Below the pieces are notes generated by a model. That model did no database searches, was not told the DNA's origin, and worked only from the letters and a program-made list of their open reading frames with translations. This document shows, one piece after another, positions 37,149 through 41,250 of a stretch of 64,000 bases of DNA (its first letter is position 1; the number at the start of each line of letters is the position of its first letter). This stretch comes from Candidatus Helarchaeota archaeon. Lineage in GTDB: Archaea; Asgardarchaeota; Lokiarchaeia; Helarchaeales; RDOG01. A program made the position numbers and the translations under genes. The DNA lies in NCBI GenBank assembly GCA_029838215.1, contig JALGVI010000003.1:32001-96000 (forward strand). The letters run 5' to 3'.

Positions 37149-38429
37149 TTATTCTTTGATTGCTTGGCTGGATCTCTTAGACTTTGGGGAAGCAACGAGT
37201 AAATCTATGGATCCCGTCCCTAATGGAATTATTTGACCAATAATCACGTTTTCTGTAATGCCCTTTAACGGATCTTCTGTTCCTTTTATTGATGCTTCGA
37301 GTAGATGTTTCACGGTCACTTCAAATGATGCTCGGGCCAAAACACTTGACTTTTTACCCGAAATACCATGTCGTCCAATCTGGCGGATTTCACCACTATT
37401 TGTCATCAAATCCGCGACTAACATGATATGACGAATGTCTACATCGAGTCCTTGTTCCTCTAAAACCTCGAATGCTTCTTTTATTATTGCATTTCGACAT
37501 GCTTCAATTCCAAGAGTCGTTGCCACTTCACGTACGTGATTGCTTATTGAACGACTTGAATCTACACCCGGAATCTGAAGAACTTCTTCAAGATTTGTTC
37601 CTTCTGAATAAATCACGTATTCTCCAATATTGGTTTCTTTTTTCACGACGACTCGTTTCACGCCTTTAAGTCCCGCAATTGGCAATACCCTGATTTTTTC
37701 AAGGAGTTTTTGTTGTTTATCAAGATCCGTTGTCTTTCCTTTTAAGACTAGGAGATGTCCGTCTCGAGTCACTTCACCTTTCTTTAATTTTTTAAGTACT
37801 TCCTCGACTTGCTCGACTTTAATTGCTTTTTCTTTTAGTAATCTTGGTGAAAGATTAACGTTAATCTCCATTGTAGCCAAGTCTATTTCAACGGATTCGG
37901 CAACGCTTTCAATTTTTGTTAATTCTATTTGTCTCCCTATTTCTCGTGCTTTTTCTTTATCATGACTGTTAGATTCGTCAAGAAAAACTTCCATCATGGG
38001 TGTAGAAGGATTCCTTCGTGCATCGACTATTTCAATCAACCGTGGAAGTCCAAGCGTGACGTTGAATTCTGCAGCTCCTGCAAAATGGAATGTCTTTAAA
38101 GTCATCTGGGTTCCGGGTTCTCCAATGCTTTGTGCCGCAACCGTGCCGACGGCTTCTCCCGGCTCTATTCTGGCACGAATGATTGCGTCCTCTGTTTCTT
38201 GAACTAAGACATCCAGAAAGTCAAGAGACTTCTTTGATATTTTTTTTCCTGTTTTTTCCTTCTCAACAATTTTGCTTACTGGTTCTTCCGTGCTTTCTAC
38301 AACCTCTTTCTCTACTTCCTCTAGATCTGTTGTTTTCTTTGATTTTGCTGCTTTTTTTCCTTTTTTGACTTTAGTTTTTTTCGTTTTCGTTGCCTTACTG
38401 GTTTTCTTTGTTTTTCTGGATTTCGGCAT
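37149..38429 (-). CDS. rpoA2: RNA polymerase subunit A'' (Rpo1C) with a Lys-rich N-terminal leader
   Basis: [45 protein letters not shown] and ENVIIGQ..PLGTG. Confidence 0.97.
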
Positions 38430-38430
38430 C

Positions 38431-41250
38431 TCAACTTAACTCCTGTTTCTTCTTTATTAGCTTCGTTATCAATTCCCTTGATATCTTCATTGGAATGTCC
38501 TTATTTTCAACAGCAATGTTAATGTGTTTTATGATATCATCATCACTCAATGCCAGAAGTTGTTCGTAGCCCATTCGATTTAGAACTTTCTCAAGTATGA
38601 TGTCAATATTTACAGCCTTCCCGTGATCTGATTTAGCGGGATCAACTCCATCATCGCCGTACTTGAATTGAATCAAATCTCCTATGGCGTTTCGAACCGT
38701 TCCGTCGTATTCTATTCTAATGTCTTGGAGGGCATTAATCAAACGCCTTTGCATGTAACCGCTTGTACTAGTTCGCACGGCAGTGTCCACCAGACCTTCT
38801 CGTCCACCCATGGCGTGAAAGAAAAACTCCGTAGGATTGAGTCCTGTTCGATAACACGATGTAACGAAACCACGGGCGGCAGCCGATAAATCCTGTTTTT
38901 TATAATGTGGAAGGGTTCTTTTTCGATATCCGCGTTGAATTCGCGCACCACGAACGGATTGTTGTCCGACACACGCTGCCATTTGAGCCAAGTTCAGCGG
39001 TTGCCCCCTAGCACCTGTAATTGTCATGATCACGGCATGTTTATTAAGACCGAGTGAATCGCTTGCACGTTCTCCTGCACTATCACGTGCTGTTGAAAGT
39101 ACTTTCATTATATGCATTTCAAGGGTTTCTTCCAATGATCTTCCGGGCAATCGCTGGAGTTCTCCTGCAAAATAGACCGAAATGAACTTGTTTGTTTCTT
39201 TATCTGCATCGGATAAGATTTGATGAATCTGTTCGCTGGCTTCTTCTTTAATGTCAATGTCATCGATTCCAACGGTAAAACCAAAATTTGAGATCTTGTT
39301 GATAAGCATTGCTGCGGCAGAATCCAAGAAGATGCGTGCCTTTGTGCTGTTATATTCCTTTACAATGCGATGAAGAAGGCTTTCTGGTTGCTGAGCACCA
39401 AATGACTTCTTGTCTATAACTCCTGAAATTAACGTGCCATTCTTTATTATCACGTAGGCATCATCAACGCATTCAAATTTCTTGCATTCTGAACATTTTT
39501 TGCAAATTTTTGCACGCAAGGATAGATTTAACTTTTCAGGGCAAAGCACGCTGAAAATCTGCTTTCCAGTCCATAGAGGTTCTGGTTTAGTTATTATGGG
39601 AGGAGGTAATTCATAACGTTTTGTTTTTGCATTATCTTGATATCCTGCGGCAATCAGCAGCTCACAGGCTTGATTTTTAGTCAAGAGTGTGCTTCGTCTG
39701 GTGAGTAAAAATGCGGCTGAAATGTAATCTTGAATGCCTCCAATGATTGGTCCACCATAGCGAGGTGAAAGCAATTGTTCTTGCACCAGCGTGAGAATTC
39801 GCGCTTCTGCACGTGCTTCCTCGCTTCTAGGGACGTGCAAGTTCATCTCATCACCATCAAAATCTGCATTGTATGGTGGACAAACGCATAATGATAATCG
39901 GAATGTTTTAAAGGGCATGACAATAACTTCGTGTCCCATTATCGATAAGCGGTGAAGTGATGGTTGCCTGTTAAACAAGACGATATCGCCCCTGCGCAAA
40001 TGCCGTTCTACGATGAATCCCGGTTCGAGTGTTTCAGCAACCGTTTCTCGATTTTTCACGAACCTGAGATCGATGCGCCGCTCATCACTTCGAATAACAT
40101 AATTTGCACCTGGATGTTCTTTTGGACCCTTTTTCACGAGTTTTTTCATTTCTTCAATGTTCCAAGCAGTCACTCTTTCGGGGATTGTCAGAATGGTTGC
40201 AATCTCATACGGGACACCAACTTCATTAATGCTCAAGTTTGGATCGGGGCTAATGACGGTTCGGGCCGAGAAATCCACGCGTTTTCCCGATAAATTGCTG
40301 CGAAATCGTCCCTCTTTTCCTTTTAATCGTTGAGCGATCGTTCTCAAAGCCCTACCCGATCGGTGTCGTGCAGGTGGAATGCCGCTCACTTCATTGTTAA
40401 AATAAGTTGTAACGTGATATTGTAGAAGCTCCCAAAGGTCTTCAACGATTAATTGCGGTGCACCTGCTTCAATATTTTCACGAAGGCGTTGGTTAATTCG
40501 AATGATATCAACCAATTTATGTGTAAGGTCATCTTCAGAACGAACGCCCGATTCGAGCGTGATTGATGGTCGGACACATACAGGTGGGACAGGCAATACG
40601 GTAATAATCATCCATTCGGGGCGTGCCACCTTTGGATTAATGCCGATTCTAATGCAATCTTCATCCGTAATTCGTTCAAACCTGTCTCGAATATCTACAG
40701 GATTTAACCGAACTGCACCTGCTTCCGTGCGCTCATAAAATGTCGTGGGCTTTTCCAGCTTGATTCGGAGTTGTTCTTCGCCGCAGTGGGGACACTTTGT
40801 CGTCTTTATAGCTCGTGCCCGTGCCGATTTCGATGCTCTCTCATCGATCAGTATGGTATCGCTTATCTCTCCTTCAATATCTATTTCTTCGATTTCGTCT
40901 TCTTCATTAAATTCTGCGTCAGGCAAAACGACACGAGAACATTTCCGACAAGTTGCCCTGAGTATTTTTTGAATGTGATTTGCAAAACCCACGTGCAATA
41001 CTGGGCGTGCCAATTCAATATGACCAAAATGACCTGGACATTCTCCAACCCTATTCCCGCACGTCTTACACCGTTGCCCTGGCTCTACGGTACCTAAACG
41101 ACCGTCCATTAATCCTGAATCTATTGGCAGTCCATCTTCATCATAAGTATCTGCTGTAATGATGCGGGTGACGCTCATCTTACGAATTTGGTCTGGGATG
41201 AGAATTCCAAAACTAATCTTATTAATAATCTTGAGACTATATCTACTCAT
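38431..41250 (-). CDS. rpoA1: RNA polymerase subunit A' (Rpo1N)
   Basis: CKTC...[16 protein letters not shown], catalytic [11 protein letters not shown] and [13 protein letters not shown]. Confidence 0.98.

Follow-up and report, generated by a model that had tools for sequence, protein, structure and literature searches.

A displaced fission point in the largest RNA polymerase subunit of some Helarchaeales, with a lysine-rich leader on Rpo1C

The arrangement of rpoA, which encodes RNA polymerase's largest subunit (Rpo1), was analyzed in a stretch of 64,000 nucleotides (nt) from Candidatus Helarchaeota archaeon (contig JALGVI010000003.1), hereafter called the window; judged by its nearest proteins, the genome belongs to the Helarchaeales, class Lokiarchaeia. 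The window holds a genuine two-gene Rpo1, composed of Rpo1N (A') and Rpo1C (A''), and this is the sole Rpo1 locus found in the genome. Its cut comes about 40-45 residues downstream of the one common to other split archaeal rpoA, and Rpo1C opens with a leader rich in Lys and Glu. Whether rpoA is fused or split has been followed as a character among Asgard archaea (PMC6478937, Fig. 2 legend), an unsplit rpoA is known from Thaumarchaeota (PMC3852633), gene fission of RNA polymerase's A and B subunits has been mentioned (PMC12411855), and an Rpo1 from Helarchaeota was modelled as one chain in a 2026 study (PMC13257274). No description of a second, alternative fission site in archaeal Rpo1 was found in the literature, as represented by an incomplete library whose figures were not covered.

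Rpo1N matched NF006336 with 1418 bits (cut-off 819) and TIGR02390 with 1391 bits (cut-off 1042.55), in both cases over residues 5-891 of 939. Rpo1C matched TIGR02389 with 469-470 bits (cut-off 420.65), beginning at residue 60 and model position 15, and it was the sole A'' match in a search of the genome. As in the canonical Rpo1N/Rpo1C pairs of Saccharolobus shibatae (2WAQ chains A/C) and Thermococcus kodakarensis (4QIW chains A/C), the halves of Rpb1/beta' are encoded by adjacent genes, keep all catalytic and structural motifs, and score above the NCBIfam equivalog cut-offs. They differ from the canonical pair in that the cut comes about 40-45 residues later, the first two helices of the A'' head are part of A', and A'' carries a Lys/Glu-rich leader of about 64 amino acids (aa). 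There is no continuous A'-A'' frame in the window; the junction reads CAG GAG TTA AGT TGA G ATG CCG AAA, with a TGA stop, a spacer of 1 nt, and a change of frame. The AGGAG motif resembling a Shine-Dalgarno (SD) sequence, which the first-pass annotation of this DNA had placed 10 nt before the A'' ATG, is present there (Table 1). A stop codon followed 1 nt on by a start codon, together with an SD motif embedded in the 3' end of the A' gene, would fit translational coupling of the two halves.

To locate the cut, the junction region was aligned between two invariant anchors, (F/Y)x(F/Y)G(D/E)(D/E) and GEPGTQM. The C-terminus of Rpo1N lies 78 aa past the first anchor, compared with 30-44 aa in 62 of 70 split relatives. 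Among the A' proteins returned when the tail region was used as the query, 62 canonical clusters have tails of 30-44 aa from the anchor, and seven clusters have tails of 75-81 aa that include the helix pair described below. In Thermococcus (906 aa) and Saccharolobus (880 aa), the A' chain stops 4-5 residues past the position aligned to Rpo1N 890-893, and the extra tail of Rpo1N amounts to 46-48 aa relative to the canonical end. The overrun of about 50 aa claimed in the first-pass annotation is thus confirmed against the PDB chains and the A' equivalog model, which ends at 891. In Rpo1C, 89 residues precede PGEAVG (which starts at residue 90, within an IEPGEAVG that starts at residue 88), compared with about 60 in the canonical A'' chains; the number is 60-69 in 81 of 101 A'' relatives. 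Fused Helarchaeales have 117-118 aa from anchor to anchor, and the fused proteins of Baldrarchaeia and Nitrososphaerota and one further fused protein from a "longer" search have 113-119 aa. In the shifted split, the 78-aa tail and the conserved A'' head of about 40 aa add up to the 117-118 aa of the fused Helarchaeales.

The canonical A'' proteins in the alignment (Lokiarchaeales, Methanococcus, Thermoprotei, and Heimdall-, Odin-, and Thorarchaeia) start before a helix pair of the form xLxxxLxxL...(L/I)PxxIxxxLxxKL, whereas in the shifted-split clade these approximately 40 residues terminate A' instead. Rpo1C is without the canonical three-helix head of about 60 aa, the (L/I)PxxIxxxLxxKL helix being located in the A' tail, and by alignment its residues 65-95 are homologous to the third helix of that head. 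When a profile of nine A' tails was compared with a profile of 90 canonical A'' heads in hhalign, the match had a Prob of 95.2% and an E value of 2.6e-8 over 33 columns, compared with E values of at least 0.03 for 30 column-shuffled controls. These results support the suggestion, made in the first-pass annotation, that the Rpo1N tail is the displaced helix pair of canonical A''; in the alignment with relatives, the tail falls on the canonical A'' N-terminal helices, and close relatives share the shifted split. Residue 73 of Rpo1C aligns with residue 1043 of yeast Rpb1, a position that would correspond to the foot/cleft boundary in the domain map of Pol II. If this placement is right, the canonical and the shifted cuts are both in the reduced foot of the archaeal enzyme, on its surface. 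The coordinates of these features are given in Table 1.

Table 1. Features of the rpoA locus (positions in the window) and other Lys-leader genes of the same genome (positions in contigs of genome G000)
Feature	Position	Strand	Remarks
Rpo1N (A') gene	38431..41250	minus	939 aa; stop TGA 38431-38433; ORF and translation
Rpo1C (A'') gene	37149..38429	minus	426 aa; ORF and TIGR02389 match
Rpo1N tail, residues 894-939	38434..38571	minus	Helix pair corresponding to the N-terminus of canonical archaeal A'' (by profile comparison)
Shine-Dalgarno-like AGGAG within the Rpo1N 3' end	38440..38444	minus	10 nt before Rpo1C ATG
Junction TGA-G-ATG	38427..38433	minus	Rpo1N stop, 1-nt spacer, Rpo1C start in +1 frame
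Rpo1C leader, Lys-rich part, residues 1-32	38334..38429	minus	16 Lys, 1 Arg
Rpo1C leader, Glu-rich mixed-charge part, residues 33-64	38238..38333	minus	Pure insertion relative to fused relatives
Rpo1C first conserved segment, residues 65-95	38145..38237	minus	Helix 71-86, then IEPGEAVG; alignment
Acidic stretch (19 residues), clamp-head linker between Zn-binding CxxC pairs	40858..40914	minus	
Rpo6 gene	G000 C82:3256-3780		L037
aIF2alpha gene	G000 C2:5102-6190		L038
Topo VI-B gene	G000 C129:16242-19991		L040
Family B DNA polymerase (PolB) gene	G000 C49:30258-33041		L041

To see how the split is distributed, 30 related genomes were searched and their junctions read, and eight metagenomic contigs were added. 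Three states of rpoA occur among these relatives: the canonical split, which is kept in Lokiarchaeales, the fused state, and the shifted split. In the Helarchaeales families f2 and f3 the gene is fused into one continuous open reading frame (ORF), of 1844 aa with one intein in G005 and of 2317 aa with two inteins in G002; G006 is also fused across the junction, and many more fused Helarchaeota proteins have 1289-1305 aa. The G005 intein (L022) is inserted directly after GEPGTQM, at the base of the trigger loop, and G002 (L021) has this intein and another in the A' part. The shifted split is found in the window's own family f1 (G000, G001) and in seven metagenomic loci (L027-L033), and it is common to at least nine further Helarchaeales loci besides the window. 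The distance from stop to start is +1 nt in the window and -1 (TAATG), -8, 0, +15, and +18 nt in the relatives, whose relative frames differ. The first-pass annotation had described the junction as one base from fusion; deleting one T does join the frames, but this closeness is incidental because the spacing varies so widely among the relatives. SD-like motifs also occur in relatives (AGGAG in L027, GGAGG in L029).

The shifted split is not an assembly error. An indel introduced during sequencing or assembly in a T/A run of a gene that is really fused might be suspected, given that the frames are one base apart and the region is A/T-rich, and yet this account has practically no likelihood. An independent assembly from another sample (L034) has the identical junction, with 6 single-nucleotide polymorphisms in 4102 nt elsewhere in the locus and no indel; the split is conserved across the clade with differing junction geometries; and the ATG stands at a conserved MxKxKK start with an SD motif upstream. 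Programmed +1 frameshifting or read-through of the stop codon, by which some fused A'-A'' protein would still be made, is very unlikely as well. An SD-like AGGAG shortly upstream of UGA is loosely reminiscent of prfB, and the two genes are in frame with a single TAG between them in L029 and in the Lokiarchaeal genome G007. However, the window's junction has no slippery codon, since re-pairing of AGU on GUU is impossible, the relatives conserve neither the frame nor the spacing, and G001 and L033 have two in-frame stops. In G007 (L025:4103-4105), A' and A'' are parted by the TAG and two codons, and the genome search gave an open frame of 1384 aa.

The relationships of the three states were examined in a careful maximum-likelihood (ML) tree of 42 sequences and 828 columns, from which inteins, leaders, and tails had been dropped. 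The shifted-split clade is supported with 100/99, its sister is a clade of fused Helarchaeales (96/90), and the Helarchaeales have the canonically split Lokiarchaeales as their sister (100/97). The fused Rpo1 proteins of other Helarchaeales, Hodarchaeales, Baldrarchaeia, Bathyarchaeia, and Nitrososphaerota, and eukaryotic RPB1, have the same order of residues across the junction as the window, which differs from them in having a stop codon, a frame change, a new start, and a leader at the break. Since the cut cannot move by 40 residues without a continuous intermediate, and since the sister clade is fused with a clean junction, the most parsimonious course is a fusion and then a re-fission, and we infer that the order was probably canonical split, fusion, and re-fission. 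This is in agreement with the proposal of an ancestral fused gene that was re-split at a new site, which the first-pass annotation had derived from the window alone and which is supported by a fused sister clade with no insertion at that point. According to this history, a canonically split gene would have fused on the stem of the Helarchaeales and, in the lineage that led to the window's family, would have been recut close by, at a surface loop of the reduced foot, after which the new N-terminus of A'' may have grown through slippage of Lys codons.

The leader itself was described in the first-pass annotation as about 65 low-complexity residues, with 16 Lys in the first 32 and then a Glu-rich stretch, and this description holds, with a length of about 64 aa (Table 1). 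It is situated where the fused sequences show no gap and is therefore a pure insertion. Within the first 95 codons of Rpo1C no ATG, GTG, or TTG occurs besides codon 1, and the other two frames contain stops; in the absence of another start codon, an A'' with the essential helix and the PGEAVG segment must carry the translated leader. In the relatives the leader reaches up to about 140 aa. All shifted-split A'' proteins open with M-[PAG]-K-[SA]-[KR]-K and stay rich in Lys over 20-45 residues; only the first six residues of the leader are conserved among them. The leader DNA of the window contains a degenerate tandem repeat of 18 nt in 2.4 copies (38383-38425), and that of L031 a perfect 18-nt repeat in 6.6 copies encoding (KKTTKA)n, which suggests that the leader grows by slippage. 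In one subclade (L024 of G001, L030-L033), two CxxC-x12-13-CxxC Zn ribbons, weakly resembling double zinc ribbon families, follow the Lys-rich start and precede the core; as called in the public records, the L031 and L032 genes start at an inner ATG and lack the leader and the first ribbon.

Leaders of this kind are rare in the genome. Of the 2748 ORFs with 150 aa or more, only 9 have 12 or more Lys in their first 32 residues, and the five that could be identified, namely, Rpo1C, Rpo6, aIF2alpha, Topo VI-B, and a family B DNA polymerase, all handle nucleic acid; the last four have 13-16 Lys in these residues. Three further ORFs with Lys leaders (L036, L039, L042) belong to no Pfam family. The histone H1 C-terminal tails offer a known parallel: like the leader, they are about 50% Lys with Thr, Ser, and Ala, are of low complexity, and have no predicted secondary structure, but the leader has neither sequence homology to histone H1 nor its globular domain. 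Nucleic-acid binding and condensation, both suggested for this tail in the first-pass annotation, are conjectural roles of the leader.

Appendages are also found on split termini in other archaea. Lys-rich leaders occur on the A'' proteins P0019 and P0021, and helix-hairpin-helix (HhH) domains stand ahead of the canonical A'' head in P0216 (three HHH_5 units) and in P0028 and P0030 (one HhH-like unit and a Lys-rich linker each). In the Lokiarchaeales (L007-L020, L025), Rpo1N has a C-terminal extension of about 75 aa, composed of a Lys-rich linker and a motif of about 35 aa, YxxETGKNAIWRGKxTKGYxxWKxEK, of which family f5 (L009, L020) has three copies; the A'' proteins of f5 bear Lys-rich leaders as well. 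The motif belongs to no Pfam family and matched PF01693, the N-terminal domain of RNase H1, only weakly (E 0.006). A first hidden Markov model (HMM) of the motif was contaminated by off-target segments, and with the cleaned model the motif was not found in the window's genome. The ETGKNAIWRGK extension, the HhH units of P0216, and the leaders of P0019 and P0021 are similar to the window's leader in being basic or DNA-binding modules on split termini; in contrast to it, they are attached at the canonical split and have other sequences. The repeated gain of such modules at termini made by a split fits a non-specific tether to DNA or RNA. On the likeliest reading, the leader of Rpo1C is disordered and polycationic and serves as an arm by which the polymerase is kept close to DNA or RNA, a function that is suggested by analogy and that we infer from these comparisons.

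Taken as a whole, the explanation that Rpo1 was re-split by way of a fusion, with a leader that grew by slippage and is likely to be a polycationic arm, is in our opinion quite probable. Several observations weigh against it. The HMM of the canonical A'' head (36 positions), when searched against all ORFs of the genome, found the A' tail only with E 3.6, at rank 10; the homology of the tail is consequently carried by the profile-profile comparison and by the link that the fused relatives provide. As the shifted-split clade stands beside the fused clade as its sister and is not nested in it, the tree alone cannot polarise the events. A fused protein, P0124, is nested in the shifted-split clade beside L030 (100/96), and an approximately unbiased (AU) test rejected a single fused clade with p 4e-45, for a group that was named after the tree had been seen. 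The leader has no family match, and its poorly conserved sequence and length would also fit neutral expansion. AlphaFold2, run on Rpo1C alone with an alignment of 12 sequences, gave a mean predicted local distance difference test (pLDDT) score of 41.5 and is informative only for the domain at 170-250 and the helix at 71-86; it predicted no secondary structure before residue 71, but because the model is poor throughout, its low confidence over the leader says little.

P0124 retains a leader remnant of 24 aa and looks like a secondary re-fusion, possibly in an extra copy; its position within the shifted-split clade indicates that re-fusion also occurs. The gene (L035:1698-5615) is a fused rpoA of 1305 aa located amid PIN/VapB, HepT/MNT, and HicA toxin-antitoxin genes, outside the usual context of thermosome-rpoA-L30e-NusA. 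Such a re-fusion, together with the sister position of the two clades, which leaves the change unpolarised, could be taken to mean that the shifted split is ancestral in the Helarchaeales, that the sister clade became fused by deleting the stop, the spacer, and the leader, and that the window preserves the older state. We consider this improbable: it needs one more event than fusion and a single re-fission, and a fused intermediate between the canonical and the shifted split would be needed here too. Moreover, the fused Helarchaeales have a junction similar in length to that of the other fused lineages sampled and no remnant of a leader, whereas P0124 does have one. The view that the Lys-rich leader is functionless, a neutral low-complexity expansion driven by slippage and tolerated because the new N-terminus lies on the surface of the polymerase, has considerably more in its favor, and we regard it as a serious possibility, though a doubtful one. 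It would account for the 18-nt repeats, perfect in L031 and degenerate in the window, for lengths that range from about 64 to 140 aa with conservation limited to the first six residues, and for the missing family match, and the fused sister clade and the re-fused P0124 do without the leader. On the other hand, the Lys-rich composition is kept in all of the at least 13 shifted-split A'' sequences, the few leaders of this kind in the genome that can be identified are all on nucleic-acid enzymes, two Zn ribbons were added in one subclade, and HhH domains have been grafted at the same terminus in other archaea. Going beyond the polycationic arm as such, we tentatively propose that, after the fusion and the second fission, one family of Helarchaeales gained an evolvable nucleic-acid-binding arm on Rpo1C, which, together with the Lys-rich N-terminus of Rpo6, might alter the engagement of DNA and nascent RNA. 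On the same tentative proposal, the Lys-rich arm, which in one subclade also bears the Zn ribbons, would be the archaeal equivalent of a disordered platform carried by a polymerase.

The first-pass annotation had further described an acidic insert in the clamp region of Rpo1N and had supposed that it might pair with the leader. There is such an acidic stretch, but its region exceeds that of Saccharolobus or Thermococcus by only 4-5 aa and is an ordinary variable linker of the clamp head. Fused relatives that lack a leader have a linker of equal or greater acidity (greater in G005, P0126, and P0127), and it is less acidic in L027, the closest relative that bears a leader. The pairing was rejected, as the acidity of the linker does not vary together with the leader. 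In Pfam, no family scored above the cut-off for the leader, the A' tail, or the acidic linker.

Two proteins encountered in the search bear on the position of breaks in Rpo1. P0136, an "A''" of 822 aa that was considered as a third fission site, proved to be a gene-call artefact inside an ORF of 1759 aa. P0261, an A' of 915 aa on a contig of 4.3 kb, ends 60 aa past the anchor, in the middle of a sequence similar to that of fused family f3; its end could be a frameshift, a shortened gene call, or another break point.

Lineage-specific fissions of the large polymerase subunits are familiar from rpoC1/rpoC2 (gamma/beta') of cyanobacteria and plastids and from Rpo2 B'/B'' of methanogens and halophiles. 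In these cases, as in the window, the cut falls where the subunit is exposed at the surface, and neighboring genes encode the halves, but another subunit or another position is concerned. The shifted split provides a second place where the largest subunit of the polymerase tolerates a break, which is useful for thinking about the assembly of the enzyme and for its engineering. Split and fused rpoA have been used as a eukaryote-like character in comparisons of Asgard and TACK archaea. Within one order, however, the state of rpoA is labile, having probably passed from the canonical split to the fused and then to the re-split state, and once back to the fused state; it should therefore be scored by the position of the fission and not as a yes/no character. 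The free termini at this surface may repeatedly acquire basic or DNA-binding appendages, an idea that bears on archaeal transcription in a lineage close to eukaryotes. The finding is of moderate interest for archaeal transcription and for the architecture of rpoA as an evolutionary character.

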